Of a stretch of 64,000 nucleotides of DNA, positions 33,494 through 62,732 are shown piece after piece (the first letter of the stretch is position 1; each line of letters starts with the position of its first letter). Source of the DNA: a virus. Lineage: Duplodnaviria > Heunggongvirae > Uroviricota > Caudoviricetes. A program made the translations under genes and the position numbers. The stretch lies in the IMG/VR virus record IMGVR_UViG_3300033069_001798, positions 1 to 64,000 of that record; one strand, given 5' to 3'. Under the pieces are notes generated by a model, which saw only the letters and a list, made by a program, of their open reading frames with translations, was not told where the DNA came from and made no database searches.

Positions 33494-34296
33494 GTACCCT
33501 CCAAAAACGGTACCCAAAAGCTGTTTGCAGAGCTTTCGTCTAGGTACTTAAACGGCACCCAAGCGTAACCATCATCTCCCCACCAAGTTCCCCAAGAGTT
33601 GCGAACCAACCACAGCTCTCTTCCAAGATCGTAGCCTACGATCACTTGGCAGTGACCTCCAGCGCCGGCCCTAACGGACTTTGGCATCGCAACGGGTGGA
33701 CCGCCGCGGTACGCCATGTAATCTTTATCGACAGTCATGCCAAAGACGATCGGATGGCTTGCTTGCAGCGCAGAGATGATGTAGTTTTTCTGCGCTTGAC
33801 CAGATCCACCGATAGAATAGTAGCTGTCAATTTTGTTGACGTAAGCGTCCCTGTAAGAACCCCAAGACGGTCGAATGAAGACCTTGCTGGTGTCATAAGG
33901 CCACTTTTCTTCTGCACAAGTTCCCAACGATGACAGCGTTCCGAACGCCATGTGAATGTAAGCACCCTCATCGCGATCTTGCATTCGTGACATCAAACGA
34001 GCATTGTAGTAGACGAACATCCTAGACAGGTCTACGAAAGGTTTGCCGTTGCGGATCTGAAGAAACTCGAGAGCCCCAACGACACCGTTGCCCGTACAAC
34101 TTCCTATAGCTCCCTGATCCTCGACCGGTGAGCACCACTGGCGCAGATCTAGGACGCCGTCGACCTCTTGCGGAGCGCTAGCTGGTGATGCAGCTGCGAA
34201 CTTAGAGATATTATCCGCAAAGACGTAGTTCTTGCTTGCGTCATGATCTGGATCTTCGTGGTCGGCTTTCCAGCCGCCTAGCTTTGGTACGTACAT
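33490..34296 (-). CDS. Papain-like (C1 family) cysteine peptidase
   Basis: QGAIGSCTGNG (Gln/Cys), GGHCQVIVGYD (His), LVRNSWGTWWGDDGY (Asn-Ser-Trp). Confidence 0.85.
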   Translation of the reverse strand: MYVPKLGGWKADHEDPDHDASKNYVFADNISKFAAASPASAPQEVDGVLDLRQWCSPVEDQGAIGSCTGNGVVGALEFLQIRNGKPFVDLSRMFVYYNARLMSRMQDRDEGAYIHMAFGTLSSLGTCAEEKWPYDTSKVFIRPSWGSYRDAYVNKIDSYYSIGGSGQAQKNYIISALQASHPIVFGMTVDKDYMAYRGGPPVAMPKSVRAGAGGHCQVIVGYDLGRELWLVRNSWGTWWGDDGYAWVPFKYLDESSANSFWVPFLEGT

Positions 34297-35108
34297 AATA
34301 GCTTCTTCCCTGTTAGCATTGAGATCAAGAACTTGACAGCGTTGAACAAGATCGCCAAGAAACCTTTTGCATCTGGTGTTGGGAGAGGTGCAGGAGGCGG
34401 CTCAGGCACAATTATATCAACTGACGGTTGAGTTTTTACTTCAGGCTCTGGCTCTTCGATGACAACTGGGATCAGAGGATGATCTGGAAGTTTGTCAGGC
34501 CAGTGAAGCGTCATAGCGGGGTACGTGTCTGGTTCTTCAAGAACTCGAGCAGCGTTGGTGAACAAGATTACATTTGCCTCGTTGCGAGGCTTCAAGCCGG
34601 GATTTCCTGCTTCATTCATCTTGCACGTTGCCGCTGCAGTCAAGAAGTCTTTCTTCTTCACAGCGGCTTCGAAGCGTGGAAAGTTGAAGCCAGATCCCAT
34701 AGCCCAAGACATGCTCATGATCCCAAGCTGAGCATCTGCGGGCCATGAATCAAACTCAGGGAAGCGCTTCTTGACGTGAGCTTCCATCTCTAGGAGCCTG
34801 CGCCTGACCAGGTCGTCGCAAGATTTCTGAGACAGCTTTAGAGCCGTGATAGCCCTGAACGAAGGAGCACCCTTCAGCGCGAGATCTGTCCTAGCTTTAA
34901 CGTTGTGCCACTCTGTAGCAATTTCACCCGGCGGTGCCAGCCCGCCAGACTTCCTTTCAAATGGCAACGAAGTAGCCATAGAGATCGGATCGATCAGGTT
35001 TCCCCGAGCGATCGTCACCAGGCCTTTGACGTCTAGGTACATGTGCTCAACGACGCCTTCGAAGCGGCCCGTGAAGCTGCTGAAAGCATCTATGACTGAT
35101 TGATGCAT
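34278..35108 (-). CDS. GH24-type lysozyme/muramidase with Pro-rich linker and C-terminal TM segment
   Basis: FEGVVEHMYLDVKGLVTIARGN (Glu/Asp/Thr triad spacing as in T4 lysozyme). C-terminus GFLAILFNAVKFLISMLTG. Confidence 0.7.
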   Translation of the reverse strand: MHQSVIDAFSSFTGRFEGVVEHMYLDVKGLVTIARGNLIDPISMATSLPFERKSGGLAPPGEIATEWHNVKARTDLALKGAPSFRAITALKLSQKSCDDLVRRRLLEMEAHVKKRFPEFDSWPADAQLGIMSMSWAMGSGFNFPRFEAAVKKKDFLTAAATCKMNEAGNPGLKPRNEANVILFTNAARVLEEPDTYPAMTLHWPDKLPDHPLIPVVIEEPEPEVKTQPSVDIIVPEPPPAPLPTPDAKGFLAILFNAVKFLISMLTGKKLLCTYQS

Positions 35109-35124
35109 GTACTCTAAGTATTGA

Positions 35125-35589
35125 TCAGCTCTTCCCAGTTTCTTTCAACTTCTTGAGCAAACCTTCTACGTCAACAAGCTGTCCAGCATGGCGCCTTGCA
35201 TCTACCTCAAAAGGTGATGACCAGTAGGGATCTGATCCAGGACAACCTACTCTGATTGCTACGTAGCACAGTGCGTACATGATCGGCTGGAAGATTCCGA
35301 GCCGCATGACTTGATCTACGTGCTTCTGCTCGTGGATGAGAACCATCGGACGATCAACGGGTGAAACTTTAAGCACCACCACGTTGCCGATCGCTTGCCC
35401 GCCCCACTTCTTCCACAACGCCATCAACCAACTTGGTGATGTGGGTTTGACAGTCCAAACAAGAGCGTCTCCTTCGACGCCGTGCCATTTGTAAAACCCC
35501 GCAGCGGTCATCAGGGCAACGTACAACAACCCAAACAACGTCACTGGCGCGGCCCAGGCGTAACCCAAAAACTTCAGAAACTTGGACAT
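35125..35589 (-). CDS. Membrane protein with HExxH motif (putative Zn-metallopeptidase)
   Basis: N-terminal TM helices and LIHEQKHVDQ. Confidence 0.4.
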   Translation of the reverse strand: MSKFLKFLGYAWAAPVTLFGLLYVALMTAAGFYKWHGVEGDALVWTVKPTSPSWLMALWKKWGGQAIGNVVVLKVSPVDRPMVLIHEQKHVDQVMRLGIFQPIMYALCYVAIRVGCPGSDPYWSSPFEVDARRHAGQLVDVEGLLKKLKETGKS

Positions 35590-35647
35590 GTCAATCTCTC
35601 CTTGATCAGCTACATGCTGATAGGTAAGAGATGACGCCGAAGTTACG

Positions 35648-36841
35648 TCAGAATTCGCCGCGAGTTCCGTGCTTCGCGTAGTAATCAGCTTCGTGCCGAG
35701 CAGAAGACTTCTTGTGCTTCGACCAAGACTTGATCTCTTCTGGCGTTGGCTTCACTGCGTCTGCAAACATGTAGTCAGCGCGTTGAGCTCGGCCGTCAGT
35801 TGTCCGGCACGTGACGTAGCTACCACCAGTCGACGGCGTATCTTCAAACGAAGCGATCTGAACGACAGCACCGCCTGGCAACTTCACCCAGTCACCGACG
35901 TTCCAGCCATCAAATGATGTCATTCCCTCGGTGAGAATCGTTCTGATCATCGACTTAAGCTCGCGAAGCTTGATCTTCATAACGAGTAAGTATTCACCCC
36001 AAAGGTGATCAAACGTCGCAGTGAACTTTCCCCAAGCTTCATCTTTCAGAAGCGACTTAAAGCCGTACTTCTCGAACGTAGAGCGGACTGGCGCCCAATC
36101 TTTGGTCGGTTGCGAAGACGTCATGCCATGCGCCTCTTCGTCAGACCACGTGGTGAACTTGATGAGCGAATAGTTCTTTCGAAAGGCTTCTTTATTAGCA
36201 GGATCATTGAAGAACTCCTTCAACGCATCCGGGTCGTCCATCAGCGCCGTAGCAGCACCATCCGTAATGATCTTTGGGATGTTGTCTGTTGGATCTCCAC
36301 GAAGAGCCTTCCATGTAACGTAATCAGCGGGAGCTTGCTCAACGTAAGCCTTCTTCATGGGGTTGTAGATGCTGACGCCCTCAAATTCATCTAGGAGCTG
36401 CGTGAAGTCAGAATCGTTCGATACAACTGTCCACTTCACGGCTCGTGTGCCACGCTTGATGAGGTTGTAGATTGTGTCATCGCACTCGTGGTGAGGATGA
36501 CGCACGACAGAGAACGGAAAAGAACCAGCCAGCAACCCGACTATCTCGTCGACCTGGCTGAAGAACTTCACCATCTCATCGTGCTCTTTGGTGCCGGCTT
36601 CTACGATGCGGTTCGCTTTGTATTGCGGCAAGATATCGTGACGAGCTTGCGGATGGCCTTCAAGCACGAAATACAAGCGACTGATATCAAGTTTTTCTAC
36701 TAGTGCTCGTATGTTACGAAAAAAATTAAAAACTACAGGAGCTGGACCAGCTGTCCAGCCAGTTCTAGACCGGTGCAAAAAATTCATCCCATCTACTAGA
36801 CAAATATGAGGACGCATAATTCTATTGTTACGTGCTTCCAT
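35648..36841 (-). CDS. 5'-3' exonuclease / flap endonuclease (RNase H-like) with a 110-aa C-terminal extension
   Basis: The N-terminal PIN-like region has CLVDGMNFLHR and HECDD. Residues 288-397 (35648..35980) begin MKIKLRELKSMIRTILTEG (leader motif), followed by a GDLV-type module NVGDWVKLPGGAVVQIASF..YVTCRTTDGRAQR. The first ~51 codons are AT-rich (cassette-derived). Confidence 0.8.
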   Translation of the reverse strand: MEARNNRIMRPHICLVDGMNFLHRSRTGWTAGPAPVVFNFFRNIRALVEKLDISRLYFVLEGHPQARHDILPQYKANRIVEAGTKEHDEMVKFFSQVDEIVGLLAGSFPFSVVRHPHHECDDTIYNLIKRGTRAVKWTVVSNDSDFTQLLDEFEGVSIYNPMKKAYVEQAPADYVTWKALRGDPTDNIPKIITDGAATALMDDPDALKEFFNDPANKEAFRKNYSLIKFTTWSDEEAHGMTSSQPTKDWAPVRSTFEKYGFKSLLKDEAWGKFTATFDHLWGEYLLVMKIKLRELKSMIRTILTEGMTSFDGWNVGDWVKLPGGAVVQIASFEDTPSTGGSYVTCRTTDGRAQRADYMFADAVKPTPEEIKSWSKHKKSSARHEADYYAKHGTRGEF

Positions 36842-37479
36842 TGCTTGTTAAGCTTAATCCGATTTACTTGAGAACGACTAATATTGAACAGTTTCACAAT
36901 GTCACAAACTCTAGTTCCAATTGACAATTGATACTTGATTCCCTTAACATCATCTTCAGTCAATGAACAATTTGGATTTTTCACTCCAATCCGTAGTTTA
37001 GCATGCTCACTAATTTTTTTACGTGCTTGATCAGTAAGATGTGTTCCGAAATTTGGATTTCTAGCGCCACGCAAACCTTCCCAACCAAGTCTTGCACGAG
37101 AAATTGCCTGGCGATGTTCTAGTGACTTAGGTTTTCCGCGGTGTTTATCACTCATTTTCTGACGAGTTTCTATCGAAACAACGCAACCCGTAGATCCTTC
37201 TCCTCCACGCGTCAGATTATAACCTCTATCGATGTTAAACGAATCATAATGTGATATCCAATAAATTTCACGATCATCACACTCATGATCATCACACTCT
37301 TCTAGAATTCGAAACTCGAAATTTTCATGACCATATTTTCGGATGGAACAGTAAAGAGGTCGAAGATCACCTTTCTTGGCAGAATACAAATGTCCTGCTT
37401 TTCTATTGGAAAAATTTTTCGTTTGCCCAACATATACTTTCCCGTTGATTAGATTCTGAATCAGATAAACATATCTCAT
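36689..37479 (-). mobile_element. AT-rich homing-endonuclease cassette 2 (GIY-YIG ORF plus recoded FEN codons 1-51)
   Basis: ~35% GC by hand count at 37261-37320, against GC-normal flanks. It is bounded upstream by a native-composition duplicate of the FEN 5' end (37480..37668). Confidence 0.65.
36796..37479 (-). CDS. GIY-YIG homing endonuclease (I-TevI/Seg-like) with NUMOD3 repeats and C-terminal HTH
   Basis: MRYVYLIQNLINGKVYVGQT..R..H..E..YNLTRGGEGS; SIETRQKMS / SLEHRQAIS / TDQARKKIS; ..VCDIVKLFNISRSQVNRIK. Confidence 0.85.
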   Translation of the reverse strand: MRYVYLIQNLINGKVYVGQTKNFSNRKAGHLYSAKKGDLRPLYCSIRKYGHENFEFRILEECDDHECDDREIYWISHYDSFNIDRGYNLTRGGEGSTGCVVSIETRQKMSDKHRGKPKSLEHRQAISRARLGWEGLRGARNPNFGTHLTDQARKKISEHAKLRIGVKNPNCSLTEDDVKGIKYQLSIGTRVCDIVKLFNISRSQVNRIKLNKQWKHVTIELCVLIFV

Positions 37480-37668
37480 TCAATTAAGTATATCGAACCG
37501 TGTTGGAGGGGCAAAGAATAGCGTCTCCACGAGAGACCTGATGTTCCTCATGAAGTTGAAGACGACGGGCGCAGGACCGCCTGTCCATCCACTTCGGGCT
37601 CGATGCAGAAAATTCATGCCGTCGCACAGAACCACGTGAGGTTGTAGCATCTTCTTAGATTGTACCAT
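37480..37668 (-). pseudogene. Orphaned native 5' fragment of the FEN gene
   Basis: MLQPHVVLCDGMNFLHRARSGWTGGPAPVVFNFMRNIRSLVETL matches IMRPHICLVDGMNFLHRSRTGWTAGPAPVVFNFFRNIRALVEKL of the full gene. It then diverges and stops (TGA) immediately before the HEG ATG. Confidence 0.75.
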
Positions 37669-38677
37669 GACGTAACGTTTCGTTGCACTTCTTCAAGTAC
37701 CATGCACGCGCAGCAGCTTGCAGCTGACCACGAACGTCGTGCCACTCCAACCCGCTGGCTTCAAGCTCAGCTTGAGCTTCCTTGAAGACGTCCTTGCACA
37801 CCCAAGCCAAGAACGGTCCCGTGAGTCGCGGATGATATTCACCACCGAGCGTGGCGACACCTTGCACGAGGCGAGCTTCAGACAGAACGAGAGCGACAAA
37901 CTCAGCTGCAGATGCGGCAACTTCCGGATCAACTTGCGCTGGTTTTCCGTGCGTCAAGATCTTGTGAGCTTCACCCTTTGCCTTGAAAGCCAAGTTCGTG
38001 AACGTCTTCACCGTCGTTGGCAGTGGGTAGTAAACGAGACCTTCACCGACGCCCTCAACTTGGAACGTGGACTTTACCCAGGGATCGCATCTCTCAACTT
38101 CAGCAACGTCGCTGTTTATCTTGTCAACGATGGGTTGCAGATCTTTTGCATGGTGCAACATGTTAACGTTGAACGACTTCGAGTGCCAAGGAAGCACGTA
38201 CGCATCATGGACGCCCGCGACCAGCATCTCGAGTTCGTCAGGTTCAACGATCAGCTTCGACTCTTCGTTGTCAAATGCGTCTAGGGTCGCAGCGGCAAAG
38301 ACAGCAAAGAACTTCTTGCTGACTTGCGTCAATGCTGTTCCCTTGTTGATGCCAGGTCCGCACCATTCACCGAAGATCACTTTATCGACTGCTGCACCGG
38401 TGTCTACAAACGATTGCGATTCTCTGTGAGCCCATGCTGCCAACCCAGCAAAATCGTTGCCAGGAGCGATGAACTGCTCGCGGGTCTGGACTGTGATGCC
38501 CTTTCGCCTGACTTGGATCCCTGCATTGGCACCATGAAGCTTCACCTTGGGCCTGAAGGTGACGTTACCGTCTCCCACGATGTGGGGGTAGTTCCTGATG
38601 TTCTTCCGAAGCGTGTGGAAGTTGACTATCTCTGGCCATCTGATGAACGACATCTGCTTTGAATCCTTCCTGTGCAT
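37655..38677 (-). CDS. ATP-dependent RNA ligase (Rnl2-like nucleotidyltransferase)
   Basis: Motif I KVKLHGANAG (KxHG as in T4 Rnl2) and FGEWCGPGI. The start could be ATG 38653. Confidence 0.6.
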   Translation of the reverse strand: MHRKDSKQMSFIRWPEIVNFHTLRKNIRNYPHIVGDGNVTFRPKVKLHGANAGIQVRRKGITVQTREQFIAPGNDFAGLAAWAHRESQSFVDTGAAVDKVIFGEWCGPGINKGTALTQVSKKFFAVFAAATLDAFDNEESKLIVEPDELEMLVAGVHDAYVLPWHSKSFNVNMLHHAKDLQPIVDKINSDVAEVERCDPWVKSTFQVEGVGEGLVYYPLPTTVKTFTNLAFKAKGEAHKILTHGKPAQVDPEVAASAAEFVALVLSEARLVQGVATLGGEYHPRLTGPFLAWVCKDVFKEAQAELEASGLEWHDVRGQLQAAARAWYLKKCNETLRHGTI

Positions 38678-60752: not shown

Positions 60753-60889
60753 GTTCTCGATGTAAGTATTGCGTCCGATGTTCTCATGACTTCAATACCA
60801 ACTGATTGCAGCAAGACAAGACCTGACGAATCCCTGTACTGGATGTCATACACGACCCTAGAGATTCCAGCGTTGATGATCATCTTGAT
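60749..60889 (-). pseudogene. Orphaned native 3' fragment of the dCMP deaminase gene
   Basis: Hand-translated from 'intergenic' DNA: IKMIINAGISRVVYDIQYRDSSGLVLLQSVGIEVMRTSDAILTSRT*. It aligns with AKSLINSRVGRIVYLQKYRNSTGVKLLREAGIQV of the upstream AT-rich copy. GC-normal composition. Its TGA makes an ATGA overlap with gene 60417..60752. Confidence 0.7.
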
Positions 60890-62166
60890 TCATTTGAGAA
60901 ATCTACTAGATCCTGATAAGAATCAACTTGAATTCCAGCTTCACGAAGCAATTTTACACCAGTTGAATTTCTGTACTTTTGCAAGTACACGATTCTTCCA
61001 ACTCGACTGTTAATTAGACTTTTTGCACACATTATGCATGGAGATGTAGTTACGTAAACTGTGGAATTTTCAAGAGATTCAGATGCGTGAGAAATGGCAT
61101 TAATTTCTGCATGAATGCAACCACAAGAACCTGGTGTTAGGGAATCACAGCCATTAAGCCCTCCAGAATTTGATCCATTGTAGCCCAGGCATAGAACGCG
61201 TTCATTATGTTGATCAACAAAAACTGCGCCAACTCGCAATCTGCAACATGTTGATCTTTTTGCAAATGCAACTGCAACATGCATCCAAATAGAATCATAT
61301 GACGATCTACTGAATGTGCCTATGTCATTTTCATAGTATTCATGAATTTTTTCAATAGGTTCAAGATCGCGTTCATAAATCACGCGAAATTCAATGTTCT
61401 TGTTGGAATAAAAAGATCTAGCGGCTTCGATCTTTTTATTCGTATGTTCATTAACGTAGCCCTTAATCTCTTCAACGACCACGATATTAGAGTCATAATT
61501 GATGAAGAGATCAGGATTGTAATAGTGTGCATTACCTTCTTCATCAGACCAAAGAATTTTATCTTTACATCTACCCCATGCTAGAACTGTATTGTCAAAA
61601 TCCAGTTCTTTGAATCTTCGTAGCTCATAGCTAGAATCGTAATGAACTGTTCCAGCCTTTGTTGACTTGTATCTTCCTTTAAGAAAGTTCTTGTTAAAAT
61701 TTTCTGGTTCGTAAGATCTTTTGTAACAATCACGAGAACAATAACGATCATAATGATGTTTCAGATTGCTTTTCACAAAGTTTGAACAATCTTTTCCACT
61801 GCATTGCACTACAATTTTATTTTGTGAATGAAATGCTAGATAACATTCTCTATCACAAAAACAATTTGCATGCGCAACAATTGTTGAACGATAACGAAAA
61901 TTTGTTTTGTTACACCAAGAGCAATTTACTTGAACATGCGTTATAGATTTTTGTTCAGCTTTGTTGTGCAAAGCGCTACATTTTCTTGAACAAAACTTTC
62001 TTCCATTGTCAGCATAACACTTCAAAACATTGAATGCAGAATTACATTGAACGCATTTAATGGTGACTCGTTTGCTTTTCTGGAAGCATGTTTTTGAACA
62101 GTAATCATTTTTTGACTTTTTTTTGCCATGACAAATAGGACACAAATCTATTTCAGATTGAATCAT
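60880..62166 (-). CDS. Fusion ORF: Zn-ribbon repeats plus PD-(D/E)xK nuclease-like (homing-endonuclease-like) N-part and dCMP deaminase C-part
   Basis: ATG 62166 in an ATGA overlap with the tdk stop. Four CxxC..(F/Y)CSxxC ribbons. YDSSYELRRFKELD..YYNPDLFINY..VVVEEIKG (TnsA-like PD-ExK). C-terminus AKRSTC..GYNG..CIHAEINAI..SPCIMCAK (the CDA zinc motif). The whole ORF is AT-rich (~33% GC by hand count at 61341-61400). Confidence 0.75.
   Translation of the reverse strand: MIQSEIDLCPICHGKKKSKNDYCSKTCFQKSKRVTIKCVQCNSAFNVLKCYADNGRKFCSRKCSALHNKAEQKSITHVQVNCSWCNKTNFRYRSTIVAHANCFCDRECYLAFHSQNKIVVQCSGKDCSNFVKSNLKHHYDRYCSRDCYKRSYEPENFNKNFLKGRYKSTKAGTVHYDSSYELRRFKELDFDNTVLAWGRCKDKILWSDEEGNAHYYNPDLFINYDSNIVVVEEIKGYVNEHTNKKIEAARSFYSNKNIEFRVIYERDLEPIEKIHEYYENDIGTFSRSSYDSIWMHVAVAFAKRSTCCRLRVGAVFVDQHNERVLCLGYNGSNSGGLNGCDSLTPGSCGCIHAEINAISHASESLENSTVYVTTSPCIMCAKSLINSRVGRIVYLQKYRNSTGVKLLREAGIQVDSYQDLVDFSNESR
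60880..62166 (-). mobile_element. AT-rich cassette 3 (nuclease-like module plus replacement dCMP deaminase)
   Basis: The composition break falls exactly at both ORF ends. A native deaminase 3' remnant lies directly downstream. Confidence 0.6.
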
Positions 62167-62732
62167 GTTAGCACTATGAAAGGATGACATCGCAAGCAAC
62201 GCGGCTCGTATAGCTCGTGCCCGCCAACTTCAAGCAACGTTTCATCTTCGCTCTTCTTGTACGTAAAATGAGCATCTTGCGAGCAGATCGTGCACACTGC
62301 TGAGCACTTCTCTATTGACGTTGCCCAAGGCAGCATCTTTGTCACTTCATCGAACGGCTTACCATTGAATGCAGTGTCAAGCGTTGACACTATGATGTTG
62401 TAGCCGTTCCTGTACAAGAACGTCAAAGCATCAGCAACGCCGTTAATCATGAAAGCTTCATCTACTGCGATGATGCTAATGTCGTTGTTCTGCTCTTCAA
62501 GAACTTTCGCAAGAATACCTTCTGCGTTATTGACAGTGACTGCATCGTGACGCCAACCACCGTGCGTCACGATCTGAGACGTAGAGTAGCGATCATCTAT
62601 CGCAGGCTTGAAAACTAGAGCGTTTCTCTTCTGGTACTTGCAACGCTCAAGCTCCATCAACAATCGAGATGATTTTGATGACCACATGGGTCCGACGTAC
62701 ATCACGAATGTTGGATTAGCTTGCTTGCTCAT
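62163..62732 (-). CDS. tdk: Thymidine kinase
   Basis: P-loop GPMWSSKSS and a C-terminal Cys cluster (CSAVCTIC..CLRC). Confidence 0.85.
   Translation of the reverse strand: MSKQANPTFVMYVGPMWSSKSSRLLMELERCKYQKRNALVFKPAIDDRYSTSQIVTHGGWRHDAVTVNNAEGILAKVLEEQNNDISIIAVDEAFMINGVADALTFLYRNGYNIIVSTLDTAFNGKPFDEVTKMLPWATSIEKCSAVCTICSQDAHFTYKKSEDETLLEVGGHELYEPRCLRCHPFIVLT

Follow-up and report, generated by a model that had tools for sequence, protein, structure and literature searches.

A probable GIY-YIG homing cassette that carries its own FEN gene start beside an orphaned native 5' end, in what appears to be an uncultured jumbo phage

How can an endonuclease gene come to lie inside a phage nuclease gene, with the first codons of that gene stranded on its far side, and still be followed by a complete copy of the same gene? 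This question is raised by a locus on the minus strand of a 64,000-nucleotide stretch of Caudoviricetes DNA (positions 1 to 64,000 of IMG/VR record IMGVR_UViG_3300033069_001798, hereafter the window), in which a gene for a FEN-type 5'-3' exonuclease is directly preceded by a GIY-YIG homing endonuclease gene (HEG) and, upstream of the latter, by a second version of its own 5' end. We consider it probable that the element in question is a free-standing, I-TevI/Seg-like GIY-YIG cassette specialised on phage FEN genes, made up of a leader, the HEG and nuclease-resistant FEN codons 1-53.

A sequence-only reading of the locus had proposed four consecutive segments on the minus strand, all of which are indeed found, within the following arrangement. 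The upstream neighbour is an RNA ligase gene (37655..38677, minus strand like every feature of the locus; Pfam RNA_ligase, 1.5e-12), whose 3' end overlaps the native FEN start by 14 nt, an overlap also seen in the HEG-less relatives L002 and L004. An orphan open reading frame (ORF) of 62 codons follows (37480..37668; G+C 0.57), with its start overlapping the ligase stop. The greater part of this ORF is the orphaned native FEN 5' end, consisting of codons 1-49 plus 2 nt (37520..37668), which has kept its start codon and is severed from the rest of the gene. Next comes the inserted cassette of 843 nt (36677..37519), absent from the relatives L002 and L003. It comprises a promoter-like HEG leader of 40 nt (37480..37519), conserved across HEG lineages and matched by a promoter scan; the free-standing GIY-YIG/NUMOD3 HEG of 227 aa (36796..37479), with Pfam, PHROGs and PDB matches; and an apparently donor-derived replacement FEN start with HEG-like G+C at third codon positions (GC3), which encodes MRPHICLVDGMNFLHRSRTGWTAGPAPVVFNFFRNIRALVEKLDISR (36677..36817, or from an alternative start at 36841). 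The native remainder of FEN (35648..36676) is nearly identical to L002 from 36676 downwards. The full FEN ORF runs from 36841 (397 aa) or from 36817 to 35648.

Three details of that earlier description have to be adjusted. The orphan ORF does begin as a FEN 5' end, then diverges and stops, as had been noted; specifically, its native part ends at 37520 and its last 40 nt (37519..37480) belong to the cassette. The AT-rich replaced FEN start is likewise present, with a boundary that lies not at ~36689 but at about 36680-36677, the donor tract reaching through DISR. Finally, the overlap of 46 nt between HEG and FEN holds only if the ATG at 36841 is used; homologues start near the ATG at 36817 (MRPH...), which gives 22 nt.

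The duplication of the FEN 5' end and the accompanying break in composition are real and well beyond chance. The start of the working FEN repeats orphan codons 10-50, and across these 41 codons 32 residues are identical (78% at the peptide level), while nucleotide identity is 64%: eight codons are identical, 24 differ synonymously and nine non-synonymously. Over the compared codons GC3 is 0.195 in the replacement copy versus 0.659 in the orphan. For FEN codons 1-48 as a whole it is 0.25, as against 0.276 in the HEG and 0.60 in the rest of FEN, where the lowest 48-codon window reaches 0.479; below ~36650 the G+C content is back to ~0.5. The quantitative check of composition that had been set in advance is therefore answered, as codons 1-48 have a GC3 below that of all other 48-codon windows of the gene. 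At the protein level, the N-terminal module of the window FEN is 71% identical to the native N-terminus, and the FEN core 98.8% identical to P0003, the FEN of L002 and L003. The FEN ORF matches PF02739 (5_3_exonuc_N; 1.1e-16) over residues 13-164, so that the match begins inside the replacement segment; the orphan ORF in turn matches a FEN-family hidden Markov model (E = 4.9e-20, model positions 28-78), and both 5' copies have retained DGMNFLHR, the DG.N metal-site segment. The longest exact run common to the two copies is the 9-nt ATGAATTTT (37609..37617 in the orphan, 36787..36779 in the replacement copy).

The identity of the upstream fragment became clear from related loci, all of which are metagenomic contigs (L numbers), the FEN protein having many metagenomic relatives. 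In the naive allele of L002 and L003 (P0003, FEN 94% identical), the ligase gene runs straight into a 396-aa FEN, without HEG. The first 149 nt of the L002 FEN are identical to window positions 37668..37520; after nt 149 the native sequence goes on with CGAACCGACTCGCTTGTATTTC, and the window with ATTCTTTGCCCC... This identity, together with the direct run of ligase into FEN, indicates that the upstream fragment is the orphaned native FEN 5' end, as had been claimed; the alternative named beforehand, an independent gene, fails, because the L002/L003 FEN starts with the 149 nt of the orphan. In addition, sequence comparison bears out the claim that the target gene was kept functional, in that FEN is read from the start supplied by the cassette and is complete again.

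A further allele, found in L004 and L005 (P0004), is chimeric. It contains no HEG and is native up to GGCATGAATTTT, after which it follows the AT-rich tract of the window base for base to DISR; the switch from native to recoded sequence falls exactly in the 9-nt microhomology ATGAATTTT. This allele may have arisen by recombination or deletion between the diverged repeats at ATGAATTTT, or through a break repaired from the recoded copy without copying of the HEG, and the data cannot separate these two origins. The reverse order, with the chimera as ancestor, appears unlikely, because the recoded tract in invaded genomes extends further 5' and is interlocked with the end of the HEG, as in other lineages. 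The same two contigs have a second mosaic patch inside FEN, corresponding to window positions 36000-36400, with 120 mismatches in 400 nt versus ~2-4% elsewhere; it explains the 86% identity of P0004, and perhaps represents a further tract of exchange. The naive, the invaded and the HEG-less recoded allele coexist in nature, the HEG-positive state being represented by at least 24 contigs versus 2 naive and 2 chimeric ones.

Searches of isolate sequences gave no close counterpart of this locus. The region 35000-39000 had no nucleotide match in 50,697 phage records (blastn); in tblastn searches of isolates for FEN and HEG the matches were at most 38% identical, with no cultured relatives, and at most 30% identical for the FEN protein. 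An identical HEG/FEN locus is carried by the 313,755-bp JGI contig Ga0119868_1000001 (L012), and FEN relatives lie on contigs of 270-350 kb; the window appears to come from an uncultured jumbo phage.

To follow the variation across the locus, the window was aligned with ten loci encoding an identical HEG protein (11 genomes), whose flanks are 88.8-99.96% identical to the window. The 887 nt at 36677..37563 contain two variable sites among the 11 genomes, as compared with 5-20 per 100 nt in the flanks. In L009, the most divergent background, the first polymorphisms beyond this tract are met at 36676/36674 to the right and at 37564, 44 nt from the left cassette end. All five of its differences within the orphan are synonymous and at third positions, as they should be if every orphan was once the start of the recipient's own gene. 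Similarly, the pairwise comparison with L001 shows 178 mismatches over 7.7 kb and almost none between ~36620 and 37750. We read this pattern as recent localised gene conversion of the 843-nt cassette into diverged genomes, i.e. homing. The mobile unit, which had been described as the HEG plus the replaced first ~50 codons, stands in this respect, given the uniform cassette, its recurrence in the lineage L016 and the HEG-like GC3 in five lineages (both described below), with the addition that it also carries the leader. The description as a fossil of homing falls short, since the reading frame is undamaged, no catalytic residue varies and the cassette shows hardly any variation between diverged backgrounds, all of which points to recent mobility.

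The HEG itself (G+C 0.376) encodes a protein with Pfam matches to GIY-YIG (PF01541, 5.6e-11) and NUMOD3 (7.3e-8, 32.7 bits) and a PHROGs match to homing endonuclease (1.5e-43). It also matches the I-TevI catalytic domain (1MK0/1LN0, 1.8e-6), with query Arg, Glu and Asn aligned to known catalytic positions of I-TevI, and residues Y16, G18, R26, H30, E71 and N88 are invariant among 10 homologues. The proposal of an AT-rich GIY-YIG/NUMOD3/HTH gene is thus confirmed for its first two domains; a C-terminal helix-turn-helix (HTH) is probable, the match to HTH_7 being sub-threshold (17.7 bits vs a cut-off of 23.8). SegE_GIY-YIG is sub-threshold too, and identity to the T4 Seg proteins is limited to shared domains. 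By its sequence, we place the HEG with the Seg-like free-standing endonucleases as regards both descent and enzyme type. At least 24 contigs from many samples encode the identical protein, with an intact ORF in every copy and no change of context, and the absence of the HEG from L002/L003 and L004/L005 constitutes a presence/absence polymorphism among close relatives.

Upstream of the HEG, the leader is built of TTGCCC (37514-37509), a 16-nt spacer, TATACT (37492-37487) and 7 nt before the ATG, and a promoter scan matches it at 9 of 12 positions (37514..37487); it is a sigma-70-like, promoter-like element. The pattern TTG(A/C)CC-N16-TATAC(T/G/A)-N7/8-ATG precedes the related HEGs in L099/L181, L180, L016 and L178, while L017 has a variant. 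As the motif occurs once in the 64-kb window, it is part of the cassette rather than a house promoter of this phage. The leader also gives the orphan ORF its non-native tail and its TGA stop (37482..37480), which abuts the HEG ATG in the same frame; no weight was given to this abutment, because L016 lacks such an arrangement. We considered whether the orphan tail (..PPTRF) could be a scarred copy of native ..EPTRL and rejected this, since different codons are used and the conserved HEG leader accounts for the tail.

In the native FEN, GTCTC-TCGTG-GAGAC (37523-37537, minus strand) can form a hairpin of 5-6 bp, next to which the T-rich run GCTATTCTTT stands in the invaded allele, so that a weak terminator-like site lies right at the cassette junction, ahead of the HEG leader. 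Terminator-like sites in the region, this hairpin (37537..37523) included, are no more numerous than expected by chance (3 vs 1.4).

The -35/spacer part of the leader resembles the reverse complement of FVLEGH-coding FEN DNA, with a family-wise shuffle p of ~0.011. The L016 leader agrees with its own lineage's naive target at 16 of 20 positions, and other leader-target pairs at 12-14 of 20. From the predicted break, the DNA for the invariant FVLEGH motif, which in the window corresponds to 36670..36653, is reached 19-36 nt downstream. In the forward orientation leader-target similarity was not significant (p 0.16-0.94), and only the inverted orientation stands out. In I-TevI, a 15/20 mimic of the homing site overlaps the enzyme's own promoter and mediates autorepression (PMC2988022). 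By analogy, the likeness suggests autorepression of the I-TevI type, which we regard as a lead and not as a result.

Evidence that the HEG is tied to FEN comes from its relatives. The nearest HEGs (54-62% identity) belong to five further lineages, L016, L017, L099/L181, L178/L179 and L180, and in all six lineages, the window included, the HEG ends a few nucleotides from the FEN start or overlaps it. The next-nearest HEGs, P0127 and P0134 (45% identity), occur in unrelated contexts with no adjoining FEN, and 158 of the 160 GIY-YIG loci surveyed in metagenome and IMG/VR scans have no FEN beside the HEG and come from other lineages. The two that do, L098 (on the same contig as L001/L010) and L099, belong to the HEG clade described here.

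Among these lineages, L016 has a 61%-identical HEG and an orphan of its own, MASILCIDGMYLLHRGRSGFKLGPAPVIFNFMRTFRALVE, which is the same sequence as nt 1-119 of FEN in L182, a HEG-less relative (93% nucleotide identity overall). Its left break is placed after GTTGA and that of the window after GAGACGCT, 6 nt apart in codon register. The extra DNA before the leader amounts to ~32 nt in L016 vs ~6 nt in the window, and the right-hand crossovers follow RLYFAL and DISR, respectively. As in the window, the L016 FEN core is ~99% identical to the naive relative and the N-terminal module 71%. The differing junctions and crossovers argue that L016 and the window represent two independent insertions, on sequence comparison at essentially one position in FENs that are only ~60% identical. 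No other indirect evidence speaks as strongly as these two insertions for a site-specific break near codons 48-50.

No orphan was detected upstream of the HEG in L017, L099, L178 and L180 (hmmsearch --max), the L180 contig ending 70 nt into FEN. Codons 1-~48 have a HEG-like GC3 in each of the five lineages whose FEN is complete, at or below every equal-sized window in the rest of FEN: below all windows in four lineages, and in L178 with 2% of windows as low. The FEN 5' module thus seems generally to travel with the HEG as a resistant, co-converted flank. The earlier contention that the arrangement differs from simple intergenic Seg-type endonucleases has to be given up, as the same HEG clade stands free directly upstream of FEN, with no orphan, in L017, L099 and L178, and the layout of L180 looks the same. 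In the light of these orphan-less layouts, the orphan looks like a by-product of entry into a genome lacking upstream homology.

All together, these observations can be assembled into a homing cycle. In a mixed infection, the enzyme would cut the naive FEN near codons 48-50, with a predicted break in the L002 sequence at GTGGAGACGCT|CGAACCGACTCGC, and by analogy with I-TevI would probably bind the invariant FVLEGH-coding DNA downstream of the cut. Inspected by eye, neither strand has an I-TevI-type CNNNG motif at the predicted break, from which no conclusion is drawn. Within the lineage, repair would proceed from the invaded genome, with the orphan serving as left homology arm and FEN from codon 54 as right arm, so that the whole cassette is copied. 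The invaded genome would itself be immune, for the right half of the site is missing from the orphan, and 44 of 123 positions (36%) are changed in the working copy. ATGAGG, a second AGG and CCGAC are present in both naive alleles and absent from all five HEG-linked alleles, a comparison of low power with two naive sequences. Self-immunity through recoding is plausible, and the recoded tract is most simply the donor's own resistant allele, not a purpose-made one.

As to the origin of the present arrangement, a donor with the layout gene X - HEG - FEN may have repaired a cut FEN in a phage without homology upstream of the HEG. This repair would have been one-sided and illegitimate, with a short-homology crossover at RLYFVLEGH on the right and end-joining on the left, and the 5' end would in this way have been duplicated instead of replaced. 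One-sided illegitimate homing with microhomology junctions has been documented for the T4 td intron (PMC2988022, its refs 4 and 5); Seg enzymes cleave distally with co-conversion, and free-standing HEGs often cut away from their own gene (PMC2988022).

Other explanations of the locus were weighed against this cassette. Since the two copies are direct repeats flanking the HEG and encode peptides that are 78% identical, the FEN 5' end could have been copied locally when the HEG landed, the downstream copy then drifting AT-rich with nothing imported. We judge such a tandem duplication in situ very unlikely, because the ages of the copies cannot match, the orphan being 100% identical to the naive allele and the other copy 36% different, including 24 synonymous codons. 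In addition, the diverged copy has a HEG-like GC3 (0.20-0.25 vs 0.276), the cassette is almost invariant across backgrounds differing by up to 11%, and HEG-linked FEN 5' ends are compositionally foreign in four other lineages. Nor does a self-splicing group I intron or an intein with a HEG, from which FEN would be restored by splicing, find any credit with us beyond the barest, even though many GIY-YIG enzymes are intron-encoded and the protein is labelled 'group I intron endonuclease' in sources. No Rfam family was found in 36400-37900 at E <= 1 and no Hint or intein domain in Pfam; the orphan ORF ends in a stop (37482..37480) and the HEG has its own start; removal of the insert deletes 13 native nt and shifts the frame; and splicing is unnecessary given a complete second 5' end. 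The sequence-only reading had set the element apart from intron- and intein-borne endonucleases, and on these grounds (no Rfam match, no Hint domain, frame not restored by removal) we agree.

A different objection is that the HEG is an ordinary intergenic Seg-like gene whose true target lies elsewhere, its adjacency to FEN and the orphan being incidental results of non-specific illegitimate recombination. Free-standing HEGs do often cleave far from their own gene (PMC2988022); nevertheless, FEN is the neighbour of six HEG lineages in different phages but not of more distant HEGs, the breaks of two independent insertions in FEN lie no more than 6 nt apart, and the conversion tract is centred on FEN codons 1-53, so that this explanation strikes us as highly improbable. 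A defunct relic, which entered once, encodes an inactive enzyme and owes its near-identity to recent common ancestry or ordinary recombination, deserves somewhat more attention, although we still hold it to be unlikely. In its favour, the HEG-positive allele is already common (at least 24 contigs vs 2 naive and 2 chimeric), and near fixation few targets remain. Against it, the ORF is intact in every copy with catalytic residues invariant across the clade, and the 5-20 variable sites per 100 nt of the flanks give way to just 2 in the 887 nt over the cassette, in backgrounds down to 88.8% identity, a signature of localised conversion and not of whole-genome ancestry.

Several points weigh against the FEN-specialised homing cassette that we prefer. 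Cleavage and its exact position, immunity and promoter activity are so far deduced from sequence, and every relative comes as a metagenomic contig. What determines recognition can only be guessed from two naive target sequences. No donor lineage was found for the window cassette, the nearest other HEG being 61% identical. The orphan-less lineages have no close HEG-less relatives in the data, so that co-travel of the 5' module rests there on composition alone, and in L178 the GC3 contrast is modest (0.63 vs 0.77). Finally, the leader-target similarity is only suggestive (p ~0.01), both orientations having been tried.

The closest parallel in the literature is provided by the mobile ORFs (mORFs) of fungal mitochondria, known from atp6 of Allomyces macrogynus and from atp6, atp9, cox2 and nad3 of Glomus sp. 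(PMC3630166, citing Paquin et al. 1994), the Allomyces atp6 being the first case described (PMC3630166). There, the endonuclease ORF carries a foreign C-terminal segment and the native C-terminus is orphaned downstream; the two Glomus atp6 copies share 63.5% nucleotide and 91% amino acid identity (PMC3630166). As in mORFs, in the window the endonuclease ORF travels with a diverged gene terminus that shares the reading frame of the gene core, the native end persists as an orphan almost identical to element-free relatives, and the copies differ mostly synonymously (here 64% nucleotide and 78% amino acid identity). Unlike in mORFs, the 5' end, with start codon and promoter-like leader, is replaced rather than the 3' end, a mirror image; the HEG forms a cistron of its own, while some mORFs (atp6, nad3) have the ORF joined in frame to the gene; the setting is a phage genome with a GIY-YIG enzyme, while mORFs are organellar and mostly LAGLIDADG; and naive, invaded and HEG-less recoded alleles are all sampled. 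On sequence comparison, the cassette works like an mORF but falls outside the described mORF set.

With the Seg endonucleases of T4 (SegF/gene 56, SegG/gene 32, SegE and SegB; PMC2988022) the locus shares a free-standing GIY-YIG gene between genes, expression signals interleaved with the neighbouring gene and, as predicted here, a cut at a distance in a neighbouring essential gene followed by break repair with co-conversion of the resistant flank. This pattern is matched in full by the lineages without an orphan, L017, L099, L178 and probably L180. For the window and L016, unlike for T4, the flank is added and not exchanged, which results in a partial duplication inside the target.

The likeness to I-TevI of the T4 td intron concerns the GIY-YIG catalytic domain, the modular tail with NUMOD3 and a probable HTH, and a predicted cut ~20-35 nt from the conserved candidate binding segment; to this may be added the target mimic overlapping the promoter, 15/20 in I-TevI and here 16/20, inverted and only marginally significant. 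In contrast to I-TevI, the HEG is not intron-encoded, and no zinc-finger linker was detected. The genes split by a HEG, namely Aeh1 nrdA/mobE, T4 gene 39/60 with mobA and phage 25 gene 43 (PMC2988022), likewise have a HEG inside a single coding region while the gene remains functional; there, both halves are needed and reassemble as subunits with no duplication, whereas here the upstream piece is redundant and the cassette rebuilds the gene. In the literature covered, which was incomplete and so does not prove absence, we found no described phage HEG with an orphaned or duplicated 5' end of its target gene, no HEG that targets FEN and no mention of the present HEG clade. In conclusion, the architecture is known in fungal mitochondria, the phage example is new as far as we found, and each step follows established homing biology.

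The FEN gene and the window have further features of their own. The FEN carries a C-terminal extension of ~110 aa (MKIKLRELKS..., 35648-35980) after the usual end ..FDHLWGE, which is lineage-specific and has no Pfam match; the protein is 396-398 aa long in this lineage vs ~275 aa in relatives at ~60% identity, and the extension looks like a downstream ORF fused on through stop-codon loss. A second mobile-element polymorphism, at a distance of 2.5 kb from the HEG, shows no link with the presence of the latter. It consists of an AT-rich intein of ~398 aa (CFSGDTL...VFVHNC; Pfam Intein_splicing) in a peptidase_C1-like gene of L001, L002, L008 and L010 (product 660 aa), a gene that is intein-free (268 aa) in the window, L005, L006, L007 and L011-L013. 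The intein site corresponds to ~34092-34112 in the window, in the minus-strand gene downstream of 34278..35108, and to 7731-8925 in L001 and 8543-10525 in L002. Two other AT-rich islands were observed in the window. That at 16611-17480 (minus strand, G+C ~0.37) encodes a second GIY-YIG endonuclease of 289 aa (Pfam 2.8e-14; SegE_GIY-YIG 25.2 bits vs a cut-off of 25) with a different, cysteine-rich C-terminal region, and lies antisense between plus-strand genes, overlapping the ORF 16472..16720. That at 60880-62199 (minus strand, G+C 0.33-0.39) encodes a 439-aa ORF, in which the C-terminal 180 aa are a dCMP deaminase (Pfam 5.1e-23) and the AT-rich N-terminal 260 aa have Cys-rich repeats and a sub-threshold TnsA-like endonuclease domain (24.5 vs 26.5 bits). 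Possibly a further nuclease element has here been joined in frame to a nucleotide-metabolism gene at its 5' end.

Returning to the FEN-specialised cassette, the finding implies that a free-standing HEG can cross into a phage missing one homology arm without killing an essential gene, by carrying the displaced piece with it. One uncultured jumbo-phage population displays the expected states of the homing cycle, namely naive, invaded and HEG-less recoded. The first ~50 FEN codons in these phages have a history separate from that of the rest of the gene, which matters for phylogenetics. In annotation, a short 'hypothetical' ORF that lies upstream of a HEG could be a stranded gene start, and a gene whose 5' end is AT-rich could have acquired it as an imported module. 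The predicted cut and binding sites in a conserved nuclease gene are directly testable. A bolder proposal, which we find quite possible though on balance somewhat doubtful, is that these loci define a distinct phage class of portable gene-invasion cassette, in which a promoter/operator, a GIY-YIG enzyme and a resistant 5' module would together enter phages without upstream homology, the orphan would then serve as homology arm, and the leader would be an inverted, FVLEGH-mimicking operator for autorepression. If this were true, partial 5' duplications beside HEGs would in general mark jumps from one lineage to another and would give rise to mosaic essential genes.

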